This document shows positions 18,613 to 37,894 of a stretch of DNA of 64,000 nt, in pieces. The notes under the pieces are model-generated. The model had not been told where the DNA came from. It was given only the letters and a program-made list of their open reading frames with translations, and made no database searches. This DNA is from an uncultured Methanosarcinaceae archaeon (lineage in GTDB: Archaea > Halobacteriota > Methanosarcinia > Methanosarcinales > Methanosarcinaceae), in NCBI GenBank assembly GCA_963847185.1, contig CAWJYV010000008.1:992001-1056000 (forward strand), in the 5' to 3' direction. The position numbers and the translations under genes were made by a program. Numbering within the stretch: position 1 is the first letter of the stretch; each line of letters begins with the position of its first letter.

Positions 18613-19836
18613 TTATTCCGTAGTAACTCCGTCAAATTCTGCTGGATTCGCTTCAGCTTCTGCTTTTGTGGCTCTCACTATGCAATCCTTATGGACAGGT
18701 GGTGAATAAACCGTATAGAGTTTAAGAGAATCAGTTTTCGAAGTACAGATGACGTTGTGCTCGGCTCCAGCCGGTATTATTACTGCAGATCCTTTATTTA
18801 TTTTATATTCATTTCCGTTAATTATACACTTTCCCTGCCCTTCTTCAAAACGTAAAAACTGGTCATTTTCCTTATGCATTTCCATTCCTATTTCTTCTCT
18901 AGGCTTGAGGCTCATAAGTACTAGCTGGTTGTGCTTTGCAGTGTAGAGTACCTTTCGGAAATTGTTATTTTCCAAAGTTGCTTTTTCTATATCAACACAA
19001 TATCCTTTCACTTTCTTTTCTGTTTTTTCTTTCTCTTCGTTCACTTCTTTCTCTTCGTTCACTTCTTTCTCTTCGTTCACTTCTTTCTTCTCCTCTTCTT
19101 CGTTCACTTCTTTCTCTTCGTTCACTTCTTTCTCTTCGTTCACTTCTTTCTCTTCGTTCACTTCTTTCTCTTCGTTCACTTCTTTCTCTTCGTTCACTTC
19201 TTTCTCTTCGTTCACTTCTTCCTTTTCTTTTGTCTTCTTTCCAGCTATATTGAATATCTCTTTAGCACCTACTGCCGTTGTTGTTACCGGCAGTAATTCC
19301 GTAGTCACTCCGTCAAACTCTGCTGGATTCGCCTCAGCTTCTGCTTTTGTGGCACGCACTATGCAATCCTTGTGAACAGGCGGTGAATAAACCGTATAGA
19401 GTTTAAGAGAATCAGTTTTCGAAGTACAGATGATGTTGTGCTGAGCACCGGCTGGTATTATCACCGCAGATCCTTTATATACTTCATATTCATTTCCATT
19501 AATTATGCACTTTCCCTGCCCTTCTTCAAAACGTAAAAACTGGTCATTTTCCTTATGTATTTCCATTCCTATTTCTTCCCCAGGCTTGAGGCTCATAAGT
19601 ACTAGCTGGCTGTGCTTTGCAGTATAGAGCACCTTTCGGAAATTGTCGTTTTCCAAAGTGGCTTTTTCGATGTCAATAGAATATCCTTTCACTTTCTTTT
19701 CTTCCTTAGTTACCTTCTCTCCAGCTTTATTAGGCGATTCTTTAGCACTTACTGCCGCTGCTGTCAATGACAATAAAAAACAAATTGCCAGCAAAATACC
19801 CAGCGTCTTTTTTACTCTGCCAAATTGTATTTCCAT
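18613..19836 (-). CDS. Secreted tandem cupin protein with acidic EVNEEK linker
   Basis: Signal peptide MEIQFGRVKKTLGILL…AVSA; two near-identical cupin domains (FRKVLYTAKH…EIGME.H.ENDQF…PPVH). Confidence 0.8.
   Translation of the reverse strand: MEIQFGRVKKTLGILLAICFLLSLTAAAVSAKESPNKAGEKVTKEEKKVKGYSIDIEKATLENDNFRKVLYTAKHSQLVLMSLKPGEEIGMEIHKENDQFLRFEEGQGKCIINGNEYEVYKGSAVIIPAGAQHNIICTSKTDSLKLYTVYSPPVHKDCIVRATKAEAEANPAEFDGVTTELLPVTTTAVGAKEIFNIAGKKTKEKEEVNEEKEVNEEKEVNEEKEVNEEKEVNEEKEVNEEKEVNEEEEKKEVNEEKEVNEEKEVNEEKEKTEKKVKGYCVDIEKATLENNNFRKVLYTAKHNQLVLMSLKPREEIGMEMHKENDQFLRFEEGQGKCIINGNEYKINKGSAVIIPAGAEHNVICTSKTDSLKLYTVYSPPVHKDCIVRATKAEAEANPAEFDGVTTE
19031..19220. repeat. 18-bp coding tandem repeat (EVNEEK), about 10-11 copies
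   Basis: TTCTCTTCGTTCACTTCT repeated. Confidence 0.95.
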
Positions 19837-20355
19837 TTGTCCACATCCCCTGACATATCTAAATAATTCATACATATATGATTTTTAGACGATTTGATTT
19901 TTAATTTAGGTTATTGTTTTTTGTATCTACTTTCCATCGACGGATCCATTGTGAAAGTATCATTTTTCAGCTAGTATCTTAATTCAGTTCTGAAGACTAT
20001 AGTATCAGTGAATTTTATATTCATTTTATGCGCCGATGAAAATGATTCGTAATTGTATCACTAGATTATTATTCATAGGTAAATATAATACAAATAGAAA
20101 TAATAATTAGGATTTAAATACGCTAATTATATTTAACAAGTCTATCCAAAGCAATTTTTATTCCAATAAAGGATCGAACTCATATAGCTAAGACGAAAAA
20201 TTGTGGCATTTAAATTTACCATGCTTTATTTTTATACCTTGAGTGCATAAGTTCTATGGAATTAGAACGATACCTTAAGGTCAAAATCTATCGAATTCCA
20301 TCTTTCATTTTGGAACTGGGTCATTGGAAAGCAACTGTGTTTTATGGGGGAAATA

Positions 20356-20791
20356 ATGAGAAAAGCACTGATTACATTGATACTACTATTTGGCGTCTTC
20401 CTGATAATAGGATGTACGGAAAATAAGCCGATAACTCCAAACAAAACTGGAACTCCAGAGCAATCTGTAACTCCTGCTGAAACAGTTACTCCAACCGGAG
20501 AAAAATACAACTGAAAAACAGACTACAACTGAAATGCAGAATGTAACAGAGAAACTGGAAGTGAAAGAATATACACTTGAAGAACTTGCAGAATACAACG
20601 GTAAAAATGGGGGGAAGACATACGTTGCCTATCAAGGCAAGGTCTACGACGTCTCTGATAATAATGTTTGGAAAAATGGCACTCATAAAGGATGCAACGC
20701 AGGGACGGATCTCACTGGAAAAATGGACAAGGCACCACATAGGGCTGAAATATTAAAGGTATACCCTGTTGTTGGGACTTTGAAAAAATAA
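20356..20791 (+). pseudogene. Lipoprotein with cytochrome b5-like heme/steroid-binding domain, +1 frameshift near 20500
   Basis: MRKALITLILLFGVFLIIG-C lipobox; removing one base joins it to EYTLEELAEYNGKNG…YVAYQGKVYDVS…AGTDLT…APH. Confidence 0.75.
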
Positions 20792-21036
20792 CCTCATTCT
20801 GTAAAACCTCTAAAACAGGTTTTATCTTTTTCATGGTTCATGAATTTTCAGGTAAAACTTATCAATTTCCTTTAATTTATCTCTAATTTGAGAAAATTTT
20901 CCTAAATTCTGATTAATGCATGCATTGAGGACAAACATATAGGAATTAACGTAGTAAACTCATTTTCTTTATAATGTCTTATTATCTATGAGCTAATCCT
21001 GAACTAAAAAATGATTCTTAGAGTTTTTATTACATT

Positions 21037-21300
21037 GGGAGCGCAGAGGTCACTGAGTACCCCATTCTTTAGATTGGGGATGAAGTGAACCCTCGCCTCT
21101 TCGTTTTTCCCTTTACATATCTTAATAATCTAATCTTTGGAAAGTGATCGGAAATCGGACAGAGTCTCGGTGGCAGAGTTTCAATCACTTAGATCAATGA
21201 AACCATGTTAAAGGACACTGTGACTTCTTTTCCGAGTAACCGGGCGGGCGGCCCAAGCATACCCCATCCTTTAGGGTGGGGTGGCCGCCCGCAATTTGAT
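21037..21300 (+). mobile_element. Non-autonomous IS200/IS605-family derivative (both subterminal hairpins, no transposase)
   Basis: Left ACCCCATTCTTTAGATTGGGG (21059-21079); right ACCCCATCCT-TT-AGGGTGGGGT (21261-21282) inside a GCGGGCGGCC/GGCCGCCCGC stem; GC-rich in an AT-rich context. Confidence 0.6.
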
Positions 21301-21346
21301 TTTATATATCACGTCAGCATAATGTATTTTTGTGCATTTTTTGCAC

Positions 21347-22866
21347 TTAATTCTCCTCGTTATTAGTAGTACTCCCTGAACTTCTGTTCGTTATTAATAG
21401 TGCTTCCTGAATTCTCCCCGTTATTAGTAGTACTTCCTGCACTTTGTCCGTTATTAATAGTGCTTCCTGAATTCTCCCCGTTATTAGTAGTACTTCCTGC
21501 ACTTTGTCCGTTATTAATAGTGCTTCCTGAATTCTCCCCGTTATTAGTAGTACTTCCTGCACTTTGTCCGTTATTAATAGTGTTTCCACCGTCTACTGTA
21601 CTTCCGGAGTAATCTCCATTGTTAATGGTATTTCCACCATCTACTGTACTTCCTGAATTATCTCCATTATTAATGGTATTTCCACCGTCTACTGTACTTC
21701 CGGAGTAATCTCCATTGTTAATGGTATTTCCACCATCTACTGTACTTCCGGAGTAATCTCCATTGTTAATGGTATTTCCACCATCTACTGTACTTCCGGA
21801 GTAATCTCCATTGTTAATGGTATTTCCACCATCTACTGTACTTCCGGAATTATCCCCATTGTTGATAGTGTTTCCACCATTAACTATACTTCCTGCATTT
21901 TGTCCGTTATTGATGATGTTTCCCGCATGTTCTCCATTGTTAATGAAATTTCCTGCACTTTGTCCATTATTAATGGTATTATATCCATTAGTTATACTTC
22001 CGGAGTTCTCTCCATTGTATATTTCGGCCTCTGCATATTGTCCATCATTAATGGTCACCCCTGCATCCTGTCCATTATTGATGGTATTATCTCCATTAGA
22101 CTATACTTCCTGAGTTCTCTCCATTGTTTATTTCGGCCTCTGCATATTGTCCATCGTTAATGGTCACCCCTGCATCCTGTCCATTATTGATGGTATTATC
22201 TCCATTATCTATACTCCCTGCGTCCTCTCCATTATTAATGGTGCTTCCTGCATATTGTCCACTGTTAATAGTGCTTCCTGCTTCCTCTCCATCATTTACA
22301 GTGTTCCCTGAGGATTGCCCATTGTTAATAGTGCTTCCTGCGTTCTGACCTATGTTAATAGTAGCCCCTGCATACTGTCCTATATTGAATGTGCTTCCAG
22401 CGTACTGCCCTATGTTAAAGGAACTTCCTGCATCCTGTCCATTCGCAGTAGTGTTCCCTGCATCAGATTCATTGTTAGTGGTATTTCCTGTACTGGATTC
22501 ATTGTTAATTGTGCCGTTTATGTTCAACTCATCGTTAACGTTACTTCCTGAGCTCCGGCGATTGTGAATTATGATCCTTGATTTCTGCTCATTGTTAAAT
22601 GTGACATTATTAAATGTGACATCGTTAAATGTATTACACGAGTCAGGTCCATTGACAAATATAACATTGTTAAATGTTACATTATTAAATATGTTCCCTG
22701 ATTCTGCATCTATATAAATAGGGGGTTCTGTATTCTTCTCTGAATTACTGTTGTTTCCTATCTCACTGGTGCTTTCTGCTGCTGCAGTTGTCACTAATAT
22801 CAAAAAAAGAGTTGTTATGAAAAGGCATCCTGTCTTCTTAATTCTATTAAATTTCTGTTTTCCCAT
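21347..22866 (-). pseudogene. Secreted Asn/Gly/Thr-rich repeat protein (10- and 16-aa repeats) with two +1 frameshifts
   Basis: Signal MGKQKFNRIKK…TTAAA; repeats GSTINNGQSA and GSTVDGGNTINNGDYS; extra bases near 22099 and 21383 break the repeat phase. Confidence 0.75.
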
Positions 22867-23517
22867 TTGTTCCTGTTCCCCACTCGTTTACTTAACTTGC
22901 TATGATTTTAAGGTTGACATTATCAATTTATTTCCCGTAGATAAACGACTGTAAAGTGCTATTTTTCTTTATTTTCAGTCCAGTCAAGTCTTTAAAAAAC
23001 GTTTACAAGATAATATGATAAAATTCGAAAATAAATAGGTATGTAAGGCCTAAATTAATATTAATATTGTTTTGATATCATACTGAAACGTGCCACATTT
23101 TTGTTAAACTTCCAAATCATCACTTCTTTGTGAAATGATTTTTTTAGAACCAAGTCAGTAATCTGGAGTGTAATATCTGATTCAATTGAGCACCAATTAA
23201 GGAATTCCAGAGAAAAACGAAATCTTTCCCTGGGTTTTAATCGGTTTATTTATGGATACTGATTTCTATCTCGAAACTCTCATTATTTATACGTTAAAAC
23301 AAATAATTATAGTATATAATAAAACGAAGGCAGTAAAAAGGATGCCCTCTTAATAATAAATTAATAGTTTCTCAAGAAGCTTCTCAAAAATCTAGTAATA
23401 ATAACCCTTTGCTCATTGTGCTTTTTTCATTGAAAGAGCAAAGTAGCTGTGAACTATCTCTATAATTAAAGACCGATTAAAAATAAAATTTGAAGTTCTT
23501 AAAAAGGGGTGCAGTTT

Positions 23518-24324
23518 ATGAAAATTCTCGTACTTTATTCAGGCGAACTTGGAAAAAAGGTCATTCAGAATCTGATTAATCCGGCAAGTTTCTGTGTGTC
23601 TTGTGGAGAACTCTGCAACCACTGCAGACAGGTCAGGAAGTCATATGCAAATCTCATTGTAGGAATTCATGAATTTCCCGAAGATTTGCCCCAGTTCATA
23701 GAAGAGCCAGAACAATACCTACCTTCAGGGCTTCCGGAATGTGATCTGATACTTGCTATCGGAATCCATCCTGATCTCATCATAGCTTTGCCGGAGGTTG
23801 TGCGAAACACAAAGGCAAAAGCCGTAATTGCACCAGCTGAAGACTCGAAAAAAACTCCTGCAGGTATCCTTGAACAGCTTAGAAAAGAGCTTGAAGCCAT
23901 GGGAGTTGAGTTTGAGGCACCAAAACCCTTCTGTGCCCTTGTGAAAACCGGGAAGCCTATTATAGATGCTTTCGTCGATCTTGGTTTCGGAAAGCCTGTG
24001 CTCAGAATCGAAATGAGCCCTGACGGAAAGATGTTCATAGGCGCAGGTGTTCTCAGGGACGCTCCATGCGGCTCAACCTGGTTTGTGGCCAAAAAGCTCG
24101 GCTGGACTGATATTTCCGGATACAAAGAAACTGTTTCAGGTGCTCATCATTCCTACCCCTGTACCGGAAGCATGGACAAAGATCCTCAGCTTGGGGACAC
24201 TATCCTGCACAAAGCGGGGTACATTATCAGGGAAGCTGTTGAAGAAGGAATGGAATGTGCAAAAAATGAAAAGGCACGAATTTCAGTAACCTGCGGTGAT
24301 GAGATCTCCAGCTCAAGTTTCTGA
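23518..24324 (+). CDS. DUF166-family protein
   Basis: CVSCGELCNHCR, IHPDL, PKPFCAL, RDAPCGSTW, HHSYPCTGSM; AGGGGTG RBS before ATG 23518. Confidence 0.75.
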   Translation: MKILVLYSGELGKKVIQNLINPASFCVSCGELCNHCRQVRKSYANLIVGIHEFPEDLPQFIEEPEQYLPSGLPECDLILAIGIHPDLIIALPEVVRNTKAKAVIAPAEDSKKTPAGILEQLRKELEAMGVEFEAPKPFCALVKTGKPIIDAFVDLGFGKPVLRIEMSPDGKMFIGAGVLRDAPCGSTWFVAKKLGWTDISGYKETVSGAHHSYPCTGSMDKDPQLGDTILHKAGYIIREAVEEGMECAKNEKARISVTCGDEISSSSF

Positions 24325-24537
24325 AAGAAGCGGAGTAATTATGAAAGCGAATTAATTTGCGAATACCAATCCGAACTCAACTGAAAAAGGCTATTTTAAC
24401 TAAGTCTTTATTAATTTTTAAAGGCGCGGAGACATTGGAAAAAATAAAGGCACGATTTTTCCGTACCTATCCTTACTTTTCTCAATTGCAGAACCCTATA
24501 GGATCAGCTGTAGGTTTTAAAGCCCTAAACTTTATTT

Positions 24538-25239
24538 TCAGGTTTGGGCCTGGAAATAAACCTCTTCGTAGGGCTGAACGACCACAAATCCTTCTCCTTT
24601 AAATGCCATCTGGATGGATTCTCCACTGCTTCTTCCAACCAGAGTTTTCAGGGAAATATCAGTTTTTATGTCCGGTTCAAGATTCCCTGACCAGGCAACT
24701 GTAGCATTGGGATCTGTGAAAACAGGGTTCCCTTCACTCACCTTGAGAGTCAGGGGTTCATAATGGGTAGTTATGGCAACCATGCCCGTTCCTTCCAGCT
24801 TCACGTTGAAAAGTCCTCCTGCCATCATACCAGCAACTTTTCTCAGGAGCCTGATATCCCAGTTTATTGAAGTCTCGAATGCAAGAAGATCATTTCCGTT
24901 TACAAAGATAGAATCGTTTTCCAGCTTCAGGACTGAGACTTTCTTTCCCTCGTCTGCGAGGTAGAGTTTTCCCCTCCCTTCAGCTTTTGTAAGGCTGACC
25001 CCTTCCCCTGTAAGGGATTTTTTCACGAGTTTGCCAAGCCCGTGTTCAAGAATTCCTTCTCGTGTAAACATGATGTTTCCTGTATAAGCGACCATGGAGC
25101 CTTTTTTTGTCCAGACCGTTCCATCAAGGTTTACCTCAAGCAAACGTTCGCGTTCCAGCTCGAAAACTCCCTGGTTAAGATTTCTTTCTCCTGTGCTTTG
25201 AATGAAATCTTCTATCGAATAACGTTCCATTTTTCTCAT
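24538..25239 (-). CDS. AIM24-family protein
   Basis: KKGSMVAYTG, GEGVSL…GRGKLYLAD, GGLFNVKLEGTG, GESIQMAFKGEGFVVVQP. Confidence 0.88.
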   Translation of the reverse strand: MRKMERYSIEDFIQSTGERNLNQGVFELERERLLEVNLDGTVWTKKGSMVAYTGNIMFTREGILEHGLGKLVKKSLTGEGVSLTKAEGRGKLYLADEGKKVSVLKLENDSIFVNGNDLLAFETSINWDIRLLRKVAGMMAGGLFNVKLEGTGMVAITTHYEPLTLKVSEGNPVFTDPNATVAWSGNLEPDIKTDISLKTLVGRSSGESIQMAFKGEGFVVVQPYEEVYFQAQT

Positions 25240-25620: not shown

Positions 25621-26517
25621 TTATTTACAATTTACAATTTTATTGTCGTGTATATTTACATTAGTTTCTTTTGTGTTTACATGTGCTATTGCAGGAGCAG
25701 GCAAATCATGGAAATAGTTGCCATAGACTTCTATGTTAGAAACTTTTCCTTCTAATTCCAGACCCGCATATCCTCCTCCAGATGTTGTACATTCGTTATT
25801 CGCAAACACTCCGTTGGTAATAGTATAGAATCTGCAGGAGGAGTTAGTCCGATTTATAAATTTGCTATTTTTAACTGTAATGTTTTTTGAATTATAGGCA
25901 TATACACCGTCATGCCCGCATTTATTCGCTGTAATTCCATCTATGAGAATATTGGAACATTTATTCAATAGGATAGCATCGTTACATCCATTCTTAAATG
26001 TGACATTCTCAATTGTTAACCCGTTAACGCCTATGAGTGTTGCCATGTTGTAACAGGAAGTTCCAAGCTTTACTTTTGGGTAGTAATCGCTCTGGCTGCC
26101 GTCAACTACTATGTTACTGAGTCCAACATTGGTTGCAGAATTGCCTTTTATCATAAACATAGCTTTTTCGTTTGCTATACTGACCTTTCGACCACCCCAA
26201 ACAGGTAGTCCAGAGGCGAGTTTCACTGTTGCAGTGCTGTCTCCCGTCAGAGTTACTCCGCTTCGAAGCATAATGGAGTCAGCTATATAATATGTAAACG
26301 AGCCTTTTAAGTAGACTGTTGGAATGGAATTTGCTGCTGCATATTCAAGTGCCTTGTTAATCTCAACATTATCGGCTTTTCCATCGCAGTTGTAGTCTCC
26401 GCTTCCATCTCCGGCAACAGTTATAACCTGTGTACTCTGAGCGCCTAATACATTCGGTACGGTTGTTAAAATAAGGCATGTGACCAGGAATAGGGTTCCT
26501 AGCTGTCTTTTTTGCAT
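25621..26517 (-). CDS. Secreted right-handed beta-helix protein (disaggregatase-related/pectin lyase-like)
   Basis: Signal peptide, VAGDGSGDYNCDG..DNVEIN.AL motif, GHDG and parallel beta-helix repeats. Confidence 0.8.
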   Translation of the reverse strand: MQKRQLGTLFLVTCLILTTVPNVLGAQSTQVITVAGDGSGDYNCDGKADNVEINKALEYAAANSIPTVYLKGSFTYYIADSIMLRSGVTLTGDSTATVKLASGLPVWGGRKVSIANEKAMFMIKGNSATNVGLSNIVVDGSQSDYYPKVKLGTSCYNMATLIGVNGLTIENVTFKNGCNDAILLNKCSNILIDGITANKCGHDGVYAYNSKNITVKNSKFINRTNSSCRFYTITNGVFANNECTTSGGGYAGLELEGKVSNIEVYGNYFHDLPAPAIAHVNTKETNVNIHDNKIVNCK

Positions 26518-26519
26518 CG

Positions 26520-27998: not shown

Positions 27999-29297
27999 AT
28001 GTTGGCAGAAAACGATGAAATTGGTACGTTTAGTTTTGTTCATACTGCGGACTTGCACCTTGACAGTCCTTTTGTCGGAATTTCCGGAGTGGACCCAAAA
28101 CTGGGAGAGAGGCTTGCAAAAGCGACATTTCAGGCATATGAAACCATCATCGAACTTTGTATCGATAGAGAGGTTAACTTCCTTCTTATAGCAGGGGATG
28201 TGTATGATAGTACTGATAAGAGCCTTTATGCACAGGTCAGATTCATAGAAGGACTTAAAAAACTAAATGTTGCCGGGATCCAGGCATATATTTGCCACGG
28301 GAACCATGATCCGCTTGAAGGCTGGTCTGCGAGTCTTCTATGGCCTGAAAACGTACACATTATGAGTGGGAAAAGTACTGAGATACTGGAATTTGAAAAA
28401 AATGGAGAAACTGCTGCAATCGTTGCTGGAAGAAGTTATCTCACCCAGCGTATCACGACCAATCTTGTAAAAAGCTTCCCACAAAAAGAAGAAAACTGGC
28501 CTTTTACTATAGGACTCCTGCATTGCAGTGTGGGAAACTGTGAGGGACATGATCCCTATGCACCCTGTACTCTACAGGACCTTAAGGATCTCAATTATAA
28601 TTACTGGGCTCTGGGCCATATCCATACTCCTTCTATAATTTGCAAAGAAGATCCAGTTGTAATATATCCTGGAAACCCCCAGGGAAGACACTCAGGAGAA
28701 ACCGGGGCAAGAGGCTGCTATTTCGTTAAAGTTGAAGCAGGGGAGATAGTATCTGCAGAGTTTATTGAAACCGGCTCCGTTAGATGGCATATAAGGGAAG
28801 TTTCCATCGAAGGCCTGGAAAATGAAGGAAAACTCATAGAAATCCTTTCAAATCAACTGGAAGATATCAGAGAAAATTCCGAGGGTAGAGCTGCTATTTG
28901 CAGACTGGTGCTCAAAGGAAGGGGACCTTTACACCGCTCCCTCAGGAATGAAGGTTTTCTTGGAGAAATTCTCCAGATCCTCAGAGAAAACGAAAGCCAG
29001 AGCCAGCAGTTTGTCTGGGTAGAACGCATTGAAGACGAGACACGTTTCCCGATCGAAAGGGACTTTCTGCTTAAAAGGGAGGATTTTCTGGGGGATGTGG
29101 TAAAAATCTCGGAGTTATTAAAGACTGATTTGGCAGCCCGGAATGAATTTCTTGAAAGCCTGAACTCTCTTTTTAATTCAAAGAGCGGGAGAAAATTCAT
29201 TTCAAAAATAAATGATGAAGAAATGGATTCTTTGCTTGAACGTGCAGAAAACATCCTTCTTGATACTCTTTTAACGGAGGAAAAACATGAAAATTAA
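27999..29297 (+). CDS. YhaO/SbcD/Mre11-like metallophosphoesterase nuclease
   Basis: ADLHLD, AGDVYD, GNHD, LGHIH, YPGNPQGR; start uncertain (27981-27999). Confidence 0.9.
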   Translation: MLAENDEIGTFSFVHTADLHLDSPFVGISGVDPKLGERLAKATFQAYETIIELCIDREVNFLLIAGDVYDSTDKSLYAQVRFIEGLKKLNVAGIQAYICHGNHDPLEGWSASLLWPENVHIMSGKSTEILEFEKNGETAAIVAGRSYLTQRITTNLVKSFPQKEENWPFTIGLLHCSVGNCEGHDPYAPCTLQDLKDLNYNYWALGHIHTPSIICKEDPVVIYPGNPQGRHSGETGARGCYFVKVEAGEIVSAEFIETGSVRWHIREVSIEGLENEGKLIEILSNQLEDIRENSEGRAAICRLVLKGRGPLHRSLRNEGFLGEILQILRENESQSQQFVWVERIEDETRFPIERDFLLKREDFLGDVVKISELLKTDLAARNEFLESLNSLFNSKSGRKFISKINDEEMDSLLERAENILLDTLLTEEKHEN

Positions 29298-32200
29298 TGC
29301 CCTCCATATCGACGGGTTTGGAAAATTTTCCGGGCTGTCCATAGAAGACCTGCCATCCGGCCTTGTCGTTTATAAAGGGGCAAACGAAGCCGGGAAATCC
29401 ACATTGTTTACTTTCATCAGGCGAATGTTTTTTGGAATCCCTAATAATAGGTCCTGCAACCTTTACCTCCCACTGGAAGGAGGACAACATGGGGGAAGAC
29501 TGATTGTCAACAATTCTTACGGGGAGCGCTGCGTAATAGAAAGAAATACCAGCAGAAAAGACGAGGTAAAAGTCAGACTTCCTGATGGAACTGAAGGAGG
29601 AAGAATCGAGCTCCTGAAACTCCTTGATCATGCCGATAGAAGTGTTTTCGAAAATATCTATGCATTTGGCCTGGAAGAATTGCAGAGTTTTGAAACCCTG
29701 AATGACCAGAGTATTAACAGTAAACTCTACTGTGCAGGCACAGGAATTGGAGTTTCCATTTCCGAAGTTCTGGACTCGATCAGTAGTAGAGAAAGTAACC
29801 TGTACAAACTAAAGGGAAGCAAACCCAGGATAAATGAGCTGTTCAGAGAAATTGGGGAAATCCAGAAAAAAATTACCGAAATTGAAGAAGTCCAGAAAAA
29901 ATACGATTCACTTCATTTTGAACTTGAACAGAAATCAAGACTTATTGAGGAGTTAAAAGGAAAATCCCAGAAGGTTAAAAGAAAGTCGGATCATATCCAG
30001 AGCTTATTTTCGGTGTGGGAAAATTGGAGGGCCTTACAGGAATCAGGAACCTCTCTGAGAGAGCTACCTGAGCTTAAGAGTTTTCCTGAAAAAGGGGAAG
30101 AAACTGTTTTAAAGCTTCAGGAAAAGCTCAAAGAGCTCAAAGAAGCTATTTCAGACCTTCAGCAGGAACTCGAGAAAAACGGTATAAGACAAAGGGACAT
30201 CCAGATTGATGAAAAGCTGCTTGGGAAAAAAAATGAAATACTGGAACTGGCAGGCGGGGTTGAGAAATACAGATCAGAATGTAAAACGTTTCCTGTGCTG
30301 GAAATAAACCTCAAGGAGGAAAAAGCTGAATTTTCAGAACGCCTTCTGGAATTGGGCCCTTCCTGGAATGAAAACATACTGAACAATTTTGACCGCTCTA
30401 TCCCAGCAAAAGAAGCCATAATCCAGATGCAAAAGGCTATTGAGAATGCTGAAAGCGAAATCAAAGAGAAAAGATCTGAACTGGTGCAGGTCCTGAGAAG
30501 CCTCGAAAAGTGCCTTAAGGAAAACAATGGATTTGACGAAAGGTTCCTGATGCATAAGGATATAATTGCAGAACTTGGAAACGGTATTGCAAAATACCGA
30601 GCCGACAGGGATTTCCTCCTATCCGGAGAACAGGAACTTAATGCTAAGAGGATCGAATTCCATGAAATAATAAGCGGATTGGGTAGTGGCTGGGATGAAG
30701 AGACCTTAAATCTTTTTGATCATTCGATTTCTACAAGAGAAAATATAGTCCAGAAGCGGAAGGAAATAGAAGATTCTGCAAGAATTATTGAGAGAATCCG
30801 GGATCGGATGGAAGAAGCCGTTAAAGAAATTGACGAACTGCGCGAAGAAATAGAGTCTCTGGAAGAGAAACTGAATTCGCATTCAATCCTTCCGAGTTAT
30901 GAAAAAATAAAGCAAGAACTTGAAGCAGTGAGTTACCTCAGGGCAAAATATCCATTGCTTAAGGAAAAAGAAGCTGAACTCAAGAATCTCGAAAAAGACC
31001 TGGAAAAAGATGCACGTCTCTTTGCAACACTCAGGCCCGGTAATGTCACCGGAAGTGAAGGAAAACTCCCCCTATGGCCTGCAGGGATGATTCTGGTCTC
31101 AGGAGGCATCGGTTTAGTTTATGAGTACATGAATGATTCTCTGCTTCCAGGAGTTGTCATATTCCTGCTTCTTTTTGCAACTTCTGTTGCATATGTTTTG
31201 ACAGTCACGAAAAAATCTCCAGTTTCTTCTTCCCTCTCTTCTCCTCTCCCGGCACAGCAAGAGGAAAGTGTAGCAGAAAATAGAAGAGCGCAGGGTCTGA
31301 AAGAGCAGCTTTCTAAGGAGCTTATATTCCTGAAAGACAGTATGAAAATAAAAGCAAAAAGATGCGGCTTTGAAGAAATTCCTGATCCTTCTGTGCTGGA
31401 GAGGAAAGCTGATGAGCTGCAAAATACAAAGGAAGAATTAAGAGCTGCCAGTGAATTGAGGCTGCAGCAGGAGAGGCTCCAGAAGAAACTGGACAGGTTG
31501 AATTCCAGTTACTTCTCTCTTGAGAATACCCTGAATGCCGAGAAAAGAAAGGAAGAAGAAAAATTTCAGGGATGGAGACAGCAGCTTGTTTCCTTTGGAC
31601 TTAATCCTGCACTCTCTACCGAGAATGTGCTTGAGATTTTCTCCTCTATCAGGACATGCCTGGAAAAACAGAAGACTATTAAAGAGCTTGAAAAGCAGGT
31701 AAAGCTCAAAGAAGAAGCTGTTGCGAAGTATGAAAAGGAATCACAGGATGTCCTGAAAGCCTGTGGAAAGCCAGTTATGGGAGCAGGCTTAGAAAATGAA
31801 ATAGCAAAGCTCAGAGAAGAAGTGAATATTGCATTTAACCAGGCTGAGAGAGGGAAAAAACTTGAAGCTGAGGCCGAAGTCCTGAAGAAGAAAAAAGAGG
31901 AACTCGAAGACCAGCTTCTGCAAGAAGAGAAGGAAAGAGCCGAGCTTTCCAATAACTGGAGCAAGTGGCTTGTATCCTGTGGACTTGACCCCTCACTTTC
32001 CGTAGAAAGTGTTATCGGAATCTTTTCAGGAATCAGAATCTGCTTTGACAAGCAGAGAAGTATCAGAAAGCTTGAGGAACAGATAGCTTCCGGCAGGACT
32101 TCAATAAAAGCTTACGAAACAAAGGTATCCGGGATTTTGCAGGAATGCAGCCGTTCAGTATCAGGGGTTTCTTTTGACACGGAAGTTGAAAAACTCCGTT

Positions 32201-33168
32201 TAGACCTTGAGCTTGAATCTGAAAGACTTAGAAATCTGGAACAGCTTAAATTAAAATCCAAAGAGCTGGAGATCGAAATTAAAAATACCCTGAACAGGCA
32301 CGAGGGAGACAGAAAAGAACTTACAACCTTCCTGGCTGCAGGCTGGGCCGAAACCGAAGACCAATTTTTTGAAAATGCAAGAATCTGGGAGCAAAGTACC
32401 GGACTCAAAAGCAGGATTTACGAGGCGGAACAGCAAATCAGGAGGATTTCAGGGGATGGGGAAAAGTATGAGGCTTTTGTTGAAGAGCTTCAGAACACGG
32501 ATCCCATTACTCTGCAAGAAGAAAGACAGAGGCTTGAGGAATGCCTTAAAGACCTGGACCAGAAAATATCTGAAGAAATGGACAGCCGCGGAGCAATAAG
32601 AAATCAGATCGAGCAGCTTGAACATGAAGACGGAGGTTCTTTAACCCGACTCATGAAAGAGGGTCTGCTTGAGGAACTTCACGAGAAATCAAGAGACTGG
32701 GCATCCCTTGTGCTCGCAAGAAAAATACTTGAAAAAGCTGTTGAAGTTTACGAAAAAGAAAGGCAGCCTGCAGTTATTATTGAAGCTCAAGCTTTTTTCT
32801 CAAAGATTACAGGGGGCAGATACGCGCGGATTTATTCTCCTCTTAATTCGTCTCAAATTTACGTTGAAGATAGAGAAGGCCGTCAGAAGACTGTTACAGA
32901 GCTTAGCCGCGGGACAGCCGAACAACTTTATCTCTCGCTAAGATTTGGTTTTATAAGAGAGTTTGAAAGACATTCGGAACCTCTACCTATTGTTTTTGAT
33001 GACATACTTGTAAACTTCGATCCCGAACGCTGCAGCAAGACCTGTGAAGCTATAAAAGACCTGGCAACAACCAACCAGATTTTCTACTTTACCTGTCACC
33101 CCGAAACTGTAGATATGCTTTCAGAAAGATTCCCTGAATGCCGGGTCGTTGATCTTGATAAAATTTAA
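29287..33168 (+). CDS. YhaN-like SMC/Rad50-type coiled-coil ATPase with central hydrophobic hairpin
   Basis: GANEAGKST Walker A, LSRGTAEQLYLSLR signature, FDDILVNFD Walker B/D-loop, FTCH; overlaps the upstream nuclease gene. Confidence 0.9.
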   Translation: MKINALHIDGFGKFSGLSIEDLPSGLVVYKGANEAGKSTLFTFIRRMFFGIPNNRSCNLYLPLEGGQHGGRLIVNNSYGERCVIERNTSRKDEVKVRLPDGTEGGRIELLKLLDHADRSVFENIYAFGLEELQSFETLNDQSINSKLYCAGTGIGVSISEVLDSISSRESNLYKLKGSKPRINELFREIGEIQKKITEIEEVQKKYDSLHFELEQKSRLIEELKGKSQKVKRKSDHIQSLFSVWENWRALQESGTSLRELPELKSFPEKGEETVLKLQEKLKELKEAISDLQQELEKNGIRQRDIQIDEKLLGKKNEILELAGGVEKYRSECKTFPVLEINLKEEKAEFSERLLELGPSWNENILNNFDRSIPAKEAIIQMQKAIENAESEIKEKRSELVQVLRSLEKCLKENNGFDERFLMHKDIIAELGNGIAKYRADRDFLLSGEQELNAKRIEFHEIISGLGSGWDEETLNLFDHSISTRENIVQKRKEIEDSARIIERIRDRMEEAVKEIDELREEIESLEEKLNSHSILPSYEKIKQELEAVSYLRAKYPLLKEKEAELKNLEKDLEKDARLFATLRPGNVTGSEGKLPLWPAGMILVSGGIGLVYEYMNDSLLPGVVIFLLLFATSVAYVLTVTKKSPVSSSLSSPLPAQQEESVAENRRAQGLKEQLSKELIFLKDSMKIKAKRCGFEEIPDPSVLERKADELQNTKEELRAASELRLQQERLQKKLDRLNSSYFSLENTLNAEKRKEEEKFQGWRQQLVSFGLNPALSTENVLEIFSSIRTCLEKQKTIKELEKQVKLKEEAVAKYEKESQDVLKACGKPVMGAGLENEIAKLREEVNIAFNQAERGKKLEAEAEVLKKKKEELEDQLLQEEKERAELSNNWSKWLVSCGLDPSLSVESVIGIFSGIRICFDKQRSIRKLEEQIASGRTSIKAYETKVSGILQECSRSVSGVSFDTEVEKLRLDLELESERLRNLEQLKLKSKELEIEIKNTLNRHEGDRKELTTFLAAGWAETEDQFFENARIWEQSTGLKSRIYEAEQQIRRISGDGEKYEAFVEELQNTDPITLQEERQRLEECLKDLDQKISEEMDSRGAIRNQIEQLEHEDGGSLTRLMKEGLLEELHEKSRDWASLVLARKILEKAVEVYEKERQPAVIIEAQAFFSKITGGRYARIYSPLNSSQIYVEDREGRQKTVTELSRGTAEQLYLSLRFGFIREFERHSEPLPIVFDDILVNFDPERCSKTCEAIKDLATTNQIFYFTCHPETVDMLSERFPECRVVDLDKI

Positions 33169-33173
33169 AAAAC

Positions 33174-33280
33174 AAGTTTGAGAAATGAAGTTTGAGAAAG
33201 AAAGTTTGAAAAAGAAAGTTTGAAAAAGAAAGTTTGAAAAAGAAAGTTTGAAAAATGAGTTTGAAAAATGAGTTTAAAAA
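33174..33280. repeat. ~14-bp intergenic tandem repeat AAGTTTGAAAAAGA, about 8 copies
   Basis: Visible directly between convergent genes. Confidence 0.85.
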
Positions 33281-33316
33281 AAGCTCGATACGAACTGTGT
33301 AAAAGGAAAATAGGCC

Positions 33317-34045
33317 TCAGGCAGTTTTCAATAATTTTTCAAGTTTTTGAATTCTATTAAGCTGTTTGAAAAGATAACGGCTATAATCCAATTCTGAACC
33401 TATGGAATCCATTTTTACTTTGATTTTTTCCCTTGAAGGATGCATTATCCAGTTCCTGAATCTGTCAAGTCCGCCGAATTGTTCAATATCTCTGATTGAT
33501 AAATCATGTTCCTGCTTGAAGGAATCATAATTTTTTAGAGCTACCAGATAATCATAAAAACTGCACTCCTCAAAAACAGACATCTCATATTCTTTCTTTT
33601 GGATTCTGCATTTTGGCTTTGCAATCTTTATAAATTCAGCTTCAGACATTCTTTCTTTAAAGAAGAGCTTCATCTGGGTTTCCAACCTGTAAAGCAATAG
33701 ATAAAAGAATACTCTGACAGCGCCTTTTCTTAGATCTGCAGCAGTAATTATCCCTACAACATCAGCATGAATTACAAAAAAGAAAGAGCTTCTATCCAGC
33801 ATTTTGATTAAAGAGATTATATCCAGGTCTTTTGAAACTATTTTATCTGGCAAAATGTAGTATTCTTTTGAGTACCTGCTGTCAAAATATTTAATAATGC
33901 TTCCATCCTCATTTTTAACAGGAAAAATAGTTATCTCTTTGTGCAACTCAGAATCTTGAGGATAAAAATAGAAGTCATCTTTTGGAGTCATTATCTGTTC
34001 TACGGTTAAACCCCTGTGAATTTGCTCAAATATATCATCATTCAC
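33317..34045 (-). CDS. CBS-domain protein with C-terminal HEPN-like RxxxxH motif
   Basis: LTVEQIMTP and VVGIITAADL (CBS); LYRLETQMK helix and RNWIMH; GTG start with AGGTG RBS. Confidence 0.6.
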   Translation of the reverse strand: MNDDIFEQIHRGLTVEQIMTPKDDFYFYPQDSELHKEITIFPVKNEDGSIIKYFDSRYSKEYYILPDKIVSKDLDIISLIKMLDRSSFFFVIHADVVGIITAADLRKGAVRVFFYLLLYRLETQMKLFFKERMSEAEFIKIAKPKCRIQKKEYEMSVFEECSFYDYLVALKNYDSFKQEHDLSIRDIEQFGGLDRFRNWIMHPSREKIKVKMDSIGSELDYSRYLFKQLNRIQKLEKLLKTA

Positions 34046-34597
34046 TTAAAACACCTAATTTTACCGACATCATTTTGAAAGGAGTAGGTTTCTTAGCTTA
34101 AATAGTACATAATAATATGGTATCTCCGAGGCAGTACAGCAATTTCTTGATATGCCCATTGAAAAGAAATGATACTTAACTTTGCTAAATGTATTAATCT
34201 GATTAATTAAAGTCTTACAGATAGGATTGGATAGAATTTATATATTTTTAGTGCAAAGGATCTGGCAAGTGCTACTCATGGTAACAGTATAAAAAGGTAA
34301 ATGTTATTTATGCCTTTCAAAAGAGCAACTTTCCATAACTCATAATCAAAAGTTTAAAGTCTCTTCTTTTCAAATTGGACTTTCCAATAAGTCAGGCCTC
34401 AAGTCACAGGTACCTTTCCCTACCCAAGCATCTTTCTTCTAATCTGTTATTGGCTCACGAAGACTTTGGTAATGTCCAGGCCCAAATTCAAGATCAAAGA
34501 GTATGAAGAGAAGAGGAAAAAGGGAAAAGAATAGGAAAAGAAGGAAAATATACTGACAAGATCAGATATTAGGACGGGTATATAAATAGATTTCACT

Positions 34598-34646
34598 CAA
34601 AGAAAAGCTGAAGGTAGAGACATGTCTCCCCTTCCAGAGAAAAAAC
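34598..34646 (-). terminator. Hairpin plus U-tract after Gly-rich gene 1
   Basis: Minus strand CTGGAAGGGGAGA-CATG-TCTCTACCTTCAG-CTTTTCTTT; a homologous sequence follows Gly-rich gene 2 (35175-35232). Confidence 0.55.
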
Positions 34647-35096
34647 TCAAGCACCACCGGATGCTCCACCAGAGGCTCCGCCTGATGCACCACCGGAACC
34701 ACCATAGACTACTCCACCAGTAGCTATACCAGACGAACCGCCGCCAGAAGCTCCGCCAGAAGCGCCACCGGAACCACCATAGACTACTCCACCAGTAGCT
34801 GCACCAGATAAACCGCCGCCAGAAGACCCACCACGAGCTCCAGCAGATGAACCACCGCCAGAAGACCCAGCAGTAGCTTCACCAGATGAGCCGCCGCCAG
34901 AAACCTCACCACGAGCTCCAGCAGATGAATCACAACAGACTATCCCACCAGTAGCTTCACCAGATGAACCGCTACCAAAAATAGGAACTTTAATAGATTC
35001 TGCACTTAATGTAGCAGCTGCCACTAACATAACAAAAAAGACTACTGTGGAGATGCACAGCACCCTTTTTATTCTGTCAATCGCTTGTTTTCTCAT
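34647..35096 (-). CDS. Secreted Gly/Ser/Ala-rich protein 1
   Basis: GGGGATGG RBS, signal MRKQAIDRIKRVL…TLSA, repeats GGGSSGxATGG and GGAS. Confidence 0.8.
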   Translation of the reverse strand: MRKQAIDRIKRVLCISTVVFFVMLVAAATLSAESIKVPIFGSGSSGEATGGIVCCDSSAGARGEVSGGGSSGEATAGSSGGGSSAGARGGSSGGGLSGAATGGVVYGGSGGASGGASGGGSSGIATGGVVYGGSGGASGGASGGASGGA

Positions 35097-35232
35097 TTGT
35101 CCATCCCCTATTATTTGACTTTTATACTTACCTTTTGAAAGCAAAGCGAATTGAGTTATAACTATTTACTGCGCCAAAGAAAAAGCTGGAGGTGGAGAAA
35201 ATCTCCCCTTCCTCCCCTTCCAGAGAAGAAAC

Positions 35233-36226
35233 TCAAGCGCCGCCAGAGGCTCCACCAGAGCCCGCCACGAGCGCCACCGGAACCGCCAGAACCGCCACCG
35301 GATGCTCCACCAGAAGCTCCACCGGAACCACCAAAGCCGCCGCCGCCGGAAGCACCACCAGAAGCTCCACCAGAACCGCCGGAACCGCCACCGGATGCTC
35401 CACCAGAAGCTCCACCGGAACCACCAAAGCCGCCGCCGCCGGAAGCACCACCAGAAGCTCCACCAGAACCGCCGGAACCGCCACCGGAGGCTCCACCAGA
35501 AGCTCCACCGGAACCACCAAAGCCGCCGCCGCCGGAAGCACCACCAGAAGCTCCACCAGAACCGCCGGAACCGCCACCAGATGCTCCACCAGAGGCTCCA
35601 CCGGAACCGCCAAAACCGCCACCACCTGAAGCACCACCAGAGGCTCCACCGGAACCACCAAAGCCGCCGCCACCAGATGCTCCACCAGAGGCTCCACCGG
35701 AACCACCAAAGCCGCCGCCGCCAGAGGCTCCGCCAGAAGCTCCACCGGAACCACCAAAGCGGCCACCAAAGCGGCCACCAAAGCGGCCACCGGGACCGCC
35801 ACCACCAGAAGCGCCACCAGAAGCTCCACCGGAACCGCCGAAGAAGCCGCCACCGCCAGAAGCGCCACCAGAAGCTCCACCGGAACCGCCGAAGAAGCCG
35901 CCACCGCCAGAAGCGCCACCAGAAGCTCCACCGGAACCACCAGGACCGCCACCGCCAGAAGCGCCACCAGAAGCTCCACCGGAACCACCAGGACCGCCAC
36001 CGCCAGAAGCGCCACCAGAAGCTCCACCGGAACCGCCAGGACCGCCACCGCCAGAAGCGCCACCAGAAGCTCCACCGGAACCGCCAGGACCGCCACCACC
36101 AGAAGCACCACCAGAGGCTCCACCGGATTGAGCACATACTGCCTCAGCTGCCACTGATATTACAAAAAAGGCTACTACGCAAAAGCACAGCATCTTTTTC
36201 ATTCTATCAAGCGTTTGTCTTCCCAT
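35233..36226 (-). CDS. Secreted Gly-rich protein 2, (GGASGGASGGGG[F/P]GGS)n, with a +1 frameshift about 9 codons before the natural stop
   Basis: Signal MGRQTLDRMKKML…AVCA; removing one G at 35261-35263 gives …GGASGGA* at 35233, the same ending and 3' flank as paralog 1. Confidence 0.75.
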
Positions 36227-36661
36227 TTAATCACTCCCCATATATTGTTATTAGTTAGATACAATTTCAGATGGTAATTTTCGCTCAATTCCCGTTGGCA
36301 AATGCAACTCATAGATAAAGGCATAGATAATTTGTTACTCATTCATTTAGATATATTTTTTAAAGATTATTGAATTGACAAATCACATTTTTTGCTATTT
36401 GTTAAGCATTTGCACCCTACAGCAAGCGATTTCGAATTGTACCACTAAGTAATAACTATCCAGAATACATAATAACTTGAGAAATATAAATAAGAAACCA
36501 ATATTAATCAAAACAAGATGTTATTTAGTCTAGGTTTCCACATGTTGTTTAAAATCTATATAAATATAATATTTAAATATTAAAAAAGGAACATCATAAA
36601 GATGAAGAACGTCAACTTTAATCTACATAGCTAATCATAAAAATAAGCAGTAAAAGATGAT

Positions 36662-37894
36662 TTACTGCTCTGAAGACCCGCTAAATAACGAATCATCTGA
36701 CATATTTTTTCCGTTAATGTTTACGTCATTGCCTGAGACGGTATTACCGTTGCCTCCCATATTGACGCCATTGCCTGAGACGGTATTACCGTCGCCCCCA
36801 ATATTGACGCCATTGCCTGAGACGGTATTACCGTCGCCCTCCATATTGACGCTTTTACCGCCTACATCACCAGAAGTAGCACTGCCAACACTATTTCCAT
36901 TGCCTCTAATATTGATACCATCACCGCCTACGCCACCAGAAGTAGCACTGCCAACACTATTACCACTACCATCAATATTGACACCTTTACCTCCTACACC
37001 TCCAGAAGTAGCACTGCCAACACTATTATCACTGCCACCAATATTGATGCCGTCACCACCTACACCTCCAGAAGTAGCGCTGCCAGCAATATTACCGCTG
37101 CCACCAATATTGACACCTTTACCACCTACTCCACCAGTAGCTCCTCCGGAAGCACCACTGCCAATGACGTCACCAGAAACACCGCCTGTAGCACTGCCAG
37201 CAATATTGCCGCTACCTCCAATATTGGTTCCGTCGCCACCTACTCCACCAGTAGCTCCACCGGATGCACCACTGCCAATAACGTCGCCAGAGATACCGCC
37301 TGTAGCACTACCGGCAATATTACCGCTACCTCCAATATTTATACCTTTACCACCTACGCCACCGGTAGCTCCGCCGGATGCACCACTGCCAATAACGTCA
37401 CCAGAAACACCGCCTGTAGCACTACCAGCAATATTGTTTCGGCCACCAATATTGATGCCGTCGCCGCCTACACCACCGGTAGCTCCGCCGGATGCACCAC
37501 TGCCAATAACGTCGCCAGAGATACCGCCTGTAGCACTACCAGCAATATTGTTTCGACCATCAACATTGATACCTTTACCACCTACGCCACCGGTAGCTCC
37601 GCCAGATGCACCACTGCCAATAACGTCACCAGAGATACCGCCTGTAGCACTGCCAGCAATATTACCACTGCCACAAACATTGATACCTTTACCACTTACT
37701 CCACCAGTAGCTCCACCGGATGCACCACTGCCAATAACGTCACCAGAGATACCGCCTGTAGCACTGCCAGCAATATTACCGTGACCTTTAAAAGGAACTG
37801 CATTTACTGTTGCAGCTGTAACTGATATTACAAGAAAGGTCAATAGCAAAATAGCCAAAATCTTTTTTAATCCGTCAAACGTCTGCTTCCCCAT
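36662..37894 (-). CDS. Secreted Gly/Asn/Ile-rich repeat protein 3 (38-aa, then 21- and 14-aa repeats)
   Basis: Signal MGKQTFDGLKKIL…TVNA; repeat NIAGSATGGISGDVIGSGASGGATGGVGGKGINIGGSG. Confidence 0.8.
   Translation of the reverse strand: MGKQTFDGLKKILAILLLTFLVISVTAATVNAVPFKGHGNIAGSATGGISGDVIGSGASGGATGGVSGKGINVCGSGNIAGSATGGISGDVIGSGASGGATGGVGGKGINVDGRNNIAGSATGGISGDVIGSGASGGATGGVGGDGINIGGRNNIAGSATGGVSGDVIGSGASGGATGGVGGKGINIGGSGNIAGSATGGISGDVIGSGASGGATGGVGGDGTNIGGSGNIAGSATGGVSGDVIGSGASGGATGGVGGKGVNIGGSGNIAGSATSGGVGGDGINIGGSDNSVGSATSGGVGGKGVNIDGSGNSVGSATSGGVGGDGINIRGNGNSVGSATSGDVGGKSVNMEGDGNTVSGNGVNIGGDGNTVSGNGVNMGGNGNTVSGNDVNINGKNMSDDSLFSGSSEQ

Follow-up and report, generated by a model that had tools for sequence, protein, structure and literature searches.

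A putative Sec-type signal peptide kept unusually constant across unrelated secreted proteins of Methanosarcina

In Methanosarcina, many secreted proteins that are otherwise unrelated, and for the most part small and repetitive, start with a near-identical export signal of 30 residues. Judged by its sequence, this leader resembles an ordinary Sec signal peptide of the cleavable kind that has been kept unusually constant. Five copies are found in the 64,000-nucleotide stretch of DNA analyzed here (the window), and these probably belong to a family of Sec-type signal peptides that is specific to Methanosarcina and whose members are homologous, cleavable, inherited as a module and used in general Sec export.

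The five N-termini singled out in the initial annotation correspond to ORFs starting at 19836, 22866, 35096, 36226 and 37894, all on the minus strand, and the residues quoted for them match. The string GGGGA-n(3-6)-ACAAATG, said to precede three of them, occurs upstream of exactly three starts (19836, 22866 and 35096), and a similar G-rich, Shine-Dalgarno-like stretch lies upstream of 36226 and 37894. The leader of gene 18613-19836 spans 31 codons (19744..19836; HMM score 60.6 bits) and is followed by a mature part (18613..19743) with two cupin domains (Cupin_2, E 1.8e-27) joined by an 18-bp tandem repeat of the EVNEEK type (19027-19220). The leader of the Asn/Gly-repeat gene 22096-22866 (30 codons, 22777..22866; 58.5 bits) is the most diverged of the window's five. 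The gene is interrupted: the Asn/Gly-repeat cargo (21363..22776) undergoes a one-base frame change within a 109-bp repeat, near 22096-22100, and ORF 21363-22058 carries on the repeats in a different frame. Proteins of 414-545 aa related to this cargo are present elsewhere in the genome.

The remaining three leader genes lie head-to-tail in one orientation (34647..37894, minus strand), and their Gly-rich repeat cargos differ from one another. They comprise a Gly/Ser/Ala-rich gene (34647-35096; leader of 32 codons, 35001..35096; 61.6 bits), a Gly-rich gene with 48/93-bp tandem repeats (35162-36226; 32 codons, 36131..36226; 65.1 bits) and a Gly-rich repeat gene with 114-bp units (36662-37894; 32 codons, 37799..37894; 63.8 bits). 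The cargos of the five genes had been described as unrelated, which holds overall, but two of the Gly-rich cargos both have SGGASGGA-type units and thus are not fully unrelated. Contigs from RNA libraries (two metatranscriptome runs of one study) span the leader and upstream DNA of two of these genes, covering 34907-35260 (gene 34647-35096) and 36039-36415 (gene 35162-36226), a weak hint that they are expressed.

The similarity of the five leaders is far beyond chance. An iterated HMM search, started from the five window N-termini, covered all 61,846 start-to-stop ORF N-termini in the 4.04-Mb genome, genes being called by crude ORF rules. The profile recovered 21 intact leader genes and one remnant, all at 45 bits or more (for the 21 genes, at least 45.7 bits and E <= 1.1e-11), the genes being scattered over 13 genomic regions. 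Next, at 21.4 bits, comes a diverged relative present in three almost identical copies, and no further match exceeds 14.6 bits. Among 280 ORF starts that are signal-peptide-like by a crude rule, 21 score at least 45 bits and 259 less than 15 bits; generic Sec signal peptides, the comparison named in advance as a check on the profile, are thus not picked up. Within the window, the beta-helix protein (25621-26517) and the rhodanese (39322-39819) belong to the low-scoring group, in agreement with the earlier observation that other secreted proteins encoded there lack the leader. The reported absence of a C-terminal anchor extends to the whole set, since all 21 leader proteins pass a filter for further transmembrane segments and none has a second hydrophobic segment.

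Within the genus, the leader was found in 34 of 35 genomes, with 1-83 matches per genome, and outside it only as single weak matches of 24-27 bits. These are short signal peptides of the ordinary kind, similar to the leader's h/c-region, as would be expected if any hydrophobic signal peptide resembled the leader. Such generic resemblance is refuted by the gap of 45 versus 15 bits within the genome and by the 780 clusters (at 50% identity) headed by the leader in a library of 1.84 billion proteins, among the best 150 of which 140 match within the first 6 residues; restriction to one genus also speaks against it. The family seems to be Methanosarcina-specific and undescribed. As had been surmised, no Pfam or NCBIfam model corresponds to it, and a full-text literature search recovered no paper describing it. 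Neither did the full-text literature or Pfam/NCBIfam yield a motif-bearing, lineage-specific Sec leader class for archaea.

Two forms of the leader occur, one with a long, basic n-region of ~12 residues carrying the short motif KQxFDRIKK, and the other with a short n-region of ~5-7 residues (101 of 243 proteins). Both continue into an h-region of ~11 uncharged residues ending in FFV and a polar c-region of the SxTAAxVSA type, so that the tripartite build of Sec-type (class I) signals is present. Over the 243 proteins K11 (95%), F21 (94%), S24 (95%) and T26 (97%) are near-invariant, K10 reaches 63%, and information content collapses directly after model position 32. In 217 distinct contexts, position -1 is A, S or T in 216 and position -3 is V, A, I, T, L or G in all, in keeping with the small or neutral residues of class I sites. 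Pro is shunned at +1, as at such sites (1/217, versus 58/217 at +2), and charged residues number 6 in total across -12..-1, versus 28-75 per position at +1..+8.

Other signal classes were considered and rejected. Two lysines (K 63%/95%, R 5%/2%) form the basic pair, in place of the R-R of twin-arginine (Tat) signals. K11 is followed by T (60%), I (18%), A (8%) or V (6%) and not by the [K/R]-[G/A] arrangement of class III (prepilin/archaellin-like) signals, which are also disfavoured because conservation stops past the hydrophobic stretch, at the A-x-A site. A lipobox is rejected for the family, given that Cys at +1 occurs in 14 of 217 contexts and is not invariant; these 14 leaders, by their sequence, could be those of lipoproteins.

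Alternatively, the leader could stay uncut as an N-in membrane anchor tethering the cargo to the cell surface; its conserved small residues S24, A27/A28 and S31/A32 would then line a helix face that packs against further copies or against a shared membrane partner. Positions 13 to 32 provide 20 uncharged residues, enough to span the membrane, and the cargos are without any other anchor. The cited portion of PMC4350412 reports signal-peptide excision for the S-layer protein only, among 31 recovered Methanosarcina N-termini, and over-called cleavage by predictors in this genus, leaving an uncleaved anchor some small probability. However, the exclusion of Pro at +1, the strict -3/-1 pattern and the sharp end of conservation are all predicted by a peptidase site and unneeded by a membrane anchor, making an uncut leader improbable.

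Downstream of the putative cleavage site, the proteins diverge widely. The suggestion of a leader that is distinct and portable was supported, as one homologous N-terminal module occurs on unrelated cargos: 216 mature parts yielded 79 BLAST groups, of which 64 are singletons, and 132 of the 144 clusters scanned have no Pfam domain. Folded cargos recognized by Pfam include cupin, globin, YVTN propeller+PKD, Big_9, thioredoxin, cupredoxin, GH25 and NosD-type beta-helix. Most cargo is small, low-complexity and lineage-specific, of Gly-, His-, Trp/Lys- and Cys-rich composition types. The median low-entropy fraction of leader proteins is 0.74, versus 0.10 in the remaining ORFs with a signal-peptide-like start (Mann-Whitney p 1e-10).

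The leaders share common descent, as codon sharing goes beyond expectation and the flanks are close to random. Identical residues have the same codon 1384 times, 1.68x the 823 that the codon usage of the genome predicts, with an excess of up to 4.4x at c-region S, T and S positions; the pairs counted here, like those behind the leader/cargo identities and pN/pS values given below, are of related sequences and not independent. Between leader genes, identity is 0.35 over 60 nt upstream and 0.30 over 96 nt downstream. Part of the codon-sharing excess could stem from a codon preference peculiar to leaders and not from descent. The excess would also suit conservation at the RNA or DNA level, be it as an sRNA target, a translation or localization element, or a recombination site swapping cargos. 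Such a role is highly improbable, given that third codon positions of the leader are less alike (identity 0.59) than first plus second positions (0.69), that pN is lower than pS in 173 of 190 paralog pairs (leader pN 0.31, pS 0.52), that similarity stops before the 5' UTR, and that the upstream regions have no common motif. The leader is under constraint at the protein level, only moderate in strength (pN/pS 0.6). No upstream k-mer stands out given the number of k-mers tested, so that a shared promoter motif was not found by this test and the co-regulation proposed for leader genes gained no support.

Among pairs with homologous cargo, leaders are 73% identical versus 54% for cargos, and the leader is the more conserved part in 1538 of 1623 pairs, a comparison dominated by one cargo group (Big_9). 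In the control set, the generic signal peptides of the genome, the N-terminus is 38% identical versus 45% for the mature part and exceeds it in 18 of 57 pairs. Even where cargos are unrelated, leaders are still 48% identical, versus 18% for controls.

The dedicated export or processing route put forward in the initial annotation was not borne out. The genome, 99.8% complete, encodes one SecY and one SRP54; neither a second translocon nor a second SecY of the accessory Sec type was found in it. Around the 13 leader-gene regions, no gene for a peptidase or a transporter turns up repeatedly, nor does any other gene recur beside leader genes. The sole extra signal peptidase is a SipW-type paralog (C10:209087-209542) flanked by its own three TIGR04088-type substrates (C10:206998-211208), which are the only TIGR04088 matches (0/21 leader genes). 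This peptidase does not track the leader, since it is missing from leader-carrying genomes of 99% completeness that have one peptidase only (G016, G011 and G002, with 14, 11 and 9 leader matches). SipW-cognate signals are, like the leader, a conserved signal-peptide class, and both occur in the same genome; unlike them, clustered with their own Sec11-type peptidase, the leader family is spread over 13 regions and has no partner.

Conservation of the leader beyond that of its cargo, taken with near-invariant F21, S24 and T26, makes a specific reader possible, and S24 and T26 (polar, within the hydrophobic part) and F21 exceed what general Sec export needs. With such a reader, the leader would be an address tag for a specific factor, such as a chaperone or targeting factor, or for a site-specific secretion zone, handling small or disordered preproteins, comparable to YSIRK and accessory-Sec leaders of Gram-positive bacteria. 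The near-invariance of K11, the strong tie to low-complexity cargo and the hydrophobic residues of the long n-region, apparently spaced as in an amphipathic helix, are consistent with this. Yet such a tag is unlikely in view of the single SecY and SRP54, the lack of a recurring neighbor or tracking peptidase paralog, the absence of the most distinctive motif from short-n-region members, and the drift of the leader at 'invariant' positions within one orthologous family (YVTN/PKD).

Several known systems resemble the leader in part. YSIRK-G/S (TIGR01168) of staphylococci and streptococci is a sequence-conserved Sec signal with an extended, motif-bearing n-region, occurring on many unrelated, often repeat-rich surface proteins, which are exported by the general Sec channel and cut by the general signal peptidase. 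The leader is likewise lineage-restricted and sequence-conserved, has a motif in an extended n-region, heads unrelated, often repeat-rich cargos and, to judge from its sequence, would use the same general machinery. The two are, however, unrelated in sequence (TIGR01168 reaches at most 12 bits in the genome, in an unrelated location), the archaeal host has neither cell wall nor sortase, and the cargos have no LPXTG-type anchor. KxYKxGKxW (TIGR03715) signal peptides of serine-rich repeat glycoproteins, exported by accessory SecA2/SecY2, also place a conserved n-region motif ahead of low-complexity repeat cargo. Here the best TIGR03715 matches reach 13.3 bits at unrelated places, SecY is single, no linked transport genes were found, and archaea are not known to have SecA. 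NCBIfam scans of 20 of the 21 leader proteins found neither family. In conotoxins and frog preprodermaseptins a conserved signal sequence precedes a hypervariable mature peptide, and the leader resembles such toxin and antimicrobial-peptide superfamilies in being more conserved than its cargo, in its hundreds of small, compositionally extreme products and in spreading through gene duplication. The leader proteins differ in that they have no pro-region and include unrelated folded domains, so that domain replacement is needed besides divergence.

In the general Sec export favored here, the preprotein would enter the membrane through the single SecYE-beta channel, presumably targeted by SRP, and the housekeeping Sec11-type signal peptidase would cut after the V/A-x-A site, as the sequence pattern suggests, freeing the cargo outside the membrane. 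Gene duplication would spread the leader as a module, often producing tandem copies like those at 34647-37894, and the cargo behind it would turn over by repeat expansion or replacement by unrelated domains, with the leader held under purifying selection and changing more slowly. Most likely the leader stays constant because it is a general signal, well tuned to preproteins that are short or disordered, and does not direct them to machinery of their own.

Experimental verification exists for few archaeal signal peptides, as stated in the cited portion of PMC4350412. In a methanogen genus of environmental and industrial importance, a large secreted and unannotated 'dark proteome' is flagged by the leader and can be annotated in one step; possible uses of the leader are as an HMM for genome annotation and as a secretion tag for Methanosarcina genetics. 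It also raises the question of why a signal peptide is more conserved than its own cargo. If its conserved residues are read by a specific factor, the family would provide a system for studying the export of very short or disordered proteins without SecA. A true address tag, in which a Methanosarcina factor would read K11, F21, S24 and T26 to export, across the genus, hundreds of small, disordered, fast-evolving and compositionally extreme proteins whose extracellular roles would be as matrix, metal-binding or antagonistic effectors, is conceivable if doubtful; it would be an archaeal counterpart of YSIRK/accessory-Sec leaders and of the 'conserved signal, hypervariable cargo' venom and antimicrobial superfamilies.

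Five minus-strand ORFs of the window, starting at positions 19836, 22866, 35096, 36226 and 37894, encode exactly the N-termini that the initial annotation had quoted for them, as confirmed from the ORF listing and by script. Their products comprise a cupin protein (18613-19836), an Asn/Gly-repeat protein (22096-22866) and three Gly-rich proteins (34647-35096, 35162-36226 and 36662-37894). Alternative longer upstream starts are available for three of the five, yet the quoted starts are preferred on the basis of the family alignment and of a G-rich Shine-Dalgarno-like stretch located 7-12 nt upstream. The sequence GGGGA-n(3-6)-ACAAATG, described earlier upstream of three of these genes, does occur at three and only three of the five; this Shine-Dalgarno-like element of the window genes was rejected as a family-wide feature.

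Two of the five genes show irregularities in their repeats. The Asn/Gly-repeat gene is split (21363-22866, minus strand) by a one-base frame change in a 109-bp tandem repeat followed by a stop (junction near 22096-22100), and ORF 21363-22058 carries on the same repeats past the frame change. Intact relatives of 414-545 aa occur elsewhere in the genome (C1:3600, C1:201343 and C8:415790), and the split may reflect a pseudogene, misassembly of the repeat or slippage. At the 3' end of gene 35162-36226 (minus strand; 35162-35290) the last ~40 residues turn W/L/R/F-rich, apparently out of frame, and another frame keeps the Gly/Ser/Ala repeats going; contigs from RNA libraries end with loose letters at 35260. 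These metatranscriptome contigs, from two runs of one study and with small word shares, cover 34907-35260 and 36039-36415 at about 90-98% identity and span the leaders of two window genes together with the DNA preceding them, a weak hint of their expression that proves neither transcription nor its starts; uncovered portions of the window carry no information on expression. Also, an intergenic 14-nt tandem array (AAGTTTGAAAAAGA, about 7-9 copies) lies at 33160-33282, between a large ATPase gene (29287-33168) and ORF 33317-34045.

In order to delimit the leader family, an HMM of 32 columns was built from the five N-termini and iterated three times against the N-termini of 61,846 start-to-stop ORFs of at least 50 aa from the host genome (4.04 Mb, 10 contigs), in which the window occupies C8:992001-1056000. 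The search converged at 21 genes (E <= 1.1e-11, 45.7-74 bits). The next match (21.4 bits) is a diverged relative present in three near-identical copies, with an Asn/Gly cargo resembling that of the window gene starting at 22866, and below this relative the background reaches 14.6 bits at best. Among 280 signal-peptide-like ORFs selected by a crude rule in this genome, 21 score at least 45 bits and 259 below 15 bits, with none in between. This bimodal distribution argues against the alternative that the model picks up generic Sec signal peptides indiscriminately. A six-frame scan also recovered an orphan leader fragment limited to the h/c-region (C7:248075-248158, minus strand; 32.5 bits, 28-codon open frame), which is a decayed member of the family. 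Two K/W-rich leader genes (C7:799248-799622 and C10:588890-589264) have identical N-termini and first 45 residues, differ at two positions over the whole proteins and share the same 130 nt upstream where compared, and represent a recent segmental duplication.

Alignment of 243 proteins revealed high conservation at model positions 9-32 and its collapse from position 33 onwards. K11 (95%), F21 (94%), S24 (95%) and T26 (97%) are nearly constant, position 32 is A (80%) or S (18%), and the basic n-region occurs in a long (119/243) and a short (101/243) form. In 217 distinct contexts of the predicted cleavage site, position -1 is A, S or T in 216 and position -3 is V, A, I, T, L or G in all; Pro is seen a single time at +1 versus 58 times at +2, and charged residues are nearly lacking at -12 to -1 and common from +1. 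Judged from sequence, these -3/-1 residues and the Pro and charge patterns are the signature of a predicted signal peptidase I site, which argues against a mere membrane anchor. The leader differs from Tat signals in having a K-K instead of an R-R pair, its anatomy argues against a prepilin-type signal, and with Cys at +1 in 14/217 contexts it is not a general lipobox.

Within the genome, identical leader residues are encoded by the same codon 1384 times versus 823 expected. Similarity is about random both in the 60 nt preceding the leader and in the 96 nt following it, indicating that the homologous unit spans the stretch between roughly the start codon and the cleavage site. The earlier proposal of a portable leader is supported, in the form of one module carried by unrelated cargos. 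Synonymous divergence is substantial and exceeds the non-synonymous (pS 0.52, pN 0.31; pN<pS in 173/190 pairs), so that the leaders are best read, from codon comparison, as old paralogs under moderate protein-level constraint and not as products of recent gene conversion. In pairs with homologous cargo, which are not independent and are dominated by one cargo group, leaders are 73% identical versus 54% for the cargo, and the leader is the more similar part in 1538/1623. Generic signal peptides of the same genome follow the reverse trend (38% versus 45% for the mature part; N-terminus more alike in 18/57 pairs). Leaders on unrelated cargos are still 48% identical, versus 18% in controls. Orthologs of the YVTN/PKD protein carry the leader in 9/9 genomes, drifted at some of the "invariant" positions.

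The distribution of the leader was analyzed by whole-genome searches with an alignment of 19 leaders. Matches were found in 23/24 and 18/19 Methanosarcina genomes of two sets (34/35 distinct genomes together), with 1-83 matches per genome and a best E <= 5.3e-10 in 33 of the 34. Genomes G018 (83 matches) and G005 (34) are rich in leaders, and G008 (99% complete) has no match to this alignment and G146 (99% complete) a single weak one. Outside the genus, one weak match each occurs in 11/101 genomes of other genera of the family (E 1e-5 to 8e-4) and in 1/16 genomes of other families of the order. Such matches from other genera were rejected as members, the five inspected being ordinary short signal peptides (24-27 bits) that lack the long n-region. 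Among 1.84 billion cluster representatives, searched exhaustively with hmmsearch, 780 clusters matched at E <= 1e-3, 41 of them at E <= 1e-10. Among the best 150 of the 780, 140 match within the first 6 residues, and the other 10 have a Met where the match begins, which points to over-long gene calls. A word-indexed protein search with a 42-residue alignment (7,997 candidates scored) gave a partial catalogue skewed to Big_9 proteins, in which source-named matches belong to Methanosarcina plus one "Euryarchaeota archaeon" and are annotated as hypothetical, Ig-like domain-containing or thioredoxin. A single leader protein gave no match in plasmid and phage records (tblastn, low-complexity filter on), a negative of little weight. 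The ESM Atlas gave no usable match.

The possibility that the motif is an already defined family was also evaluated. In 20 of the 21 proteins (the last is a near-identical copy) Pfam and NCBIfam matches over threshold fall on cargo domains only, and the SipW-cognate, YSIRK and KxYKxGKxW signal-peptide models match at no leader gene. No description was found in the main text of openly available articles, and passages of PMC4158269, PMC12352652 and PMC4350412 make no mention of the leader.

The dedicated export or processing route suggested by the initial annotation gains no support from genomic context. Across the 13 regions holding the 21 genes, peptidases and transporters do not recur within 6 kb, and the genome encodes one SecY and one SRP54. 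The only recurrent neighbour is a PAS-type sensor protein, in 3/13 regions, which was put down to chance since the genome has many sensors of this kind. Besides the 188-aa housekeeping Sec11-type signal peptidase there is one paralog. The extra, SipW-type enzyme (C10:209087-209542) is flanked by three TIGR04088 SipW-cognate signal-peptide genes (C10:206998-211208), a separate, known kind of dedicated system. It was rejected as the leader's own enzyme given its location among these genes and its absence from the complete genomes G002, G011 and G016, which carry 9-14 leader matches. In view of the unusual conservation of the leader, a dedicated route may nevertheless exist. Co-regulation, also proposed earlier, fared similarly: in 20 upstream regions no common promoter or 5' UTR motif was detected, and the best k-mer (ATTGTAT, 5/20) was rejected as evidence, its p of 9e-5 being uncorrected for the thousands of k-mers.

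A conserved three-gene module occurs at C10:166584-170721 and at loci L047-L056 of other Methanosarcina. Its first gene encodes a leader and a GY-rich ~110-aa protein, the middle one a ~310-aa protein that combines an outside domain with a single membrane segment and a winged helix of DUF7343/MarR-like type, and the third, convergent, a short-form leader with a K/W-rich protein. The regulator-like gene is present in 10/10 of the other loci (one truncated), a count biased by the choice of loci with two leader matches ~2.7 kb apart.

Apart from the five window proteins, the 21 cargos comprise five K/W-rich repeat proteins, three GY-rich proteins, three Big_9 Ig-like proteins (one with thioredoxin), two Gly/Cys-rich proteins, a Gly/Ser protein, a globin and a YVTN propeller+PKD protein. 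Pfam domains over threshold occur in 6 of the 20 scanned proteins and in 12 of 144 cluster representatives (PKD in 8; Big_9, cupredoxin, GH25 and NosD in 1 each), leaving 132 with none, and BLAST sorts 216 mature parts into 79 groups, of which 64 have a single member. In composition the cargos either lack K/R or are all K. Low-entropy sequence makes up a median fraction of 0.74 of leader cargo versus 0.10 in other signal-peptide-like ORFs (p 1e-10). The pair C8:75495/76863 has a common leader and C-terminus and different middle repeats and, like the run of three Gly-rich genes at 34647-37894, suggests tandem duplication accompanied by turnover of the repeats. Leader proteins elsewhere in Methanosarcina (P0177, P0166, P0109, P0116 and others) include a GH25 muramidase, a cupredoxin and many His-, Trp- and Cys-rich mini-proteins, raising the idea of putative antibacterial or metal-binding roles. 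The leader itself is specific to the genus, appears to be new, and belongs with the known classes of sequence-conserved Sec signal peptides.
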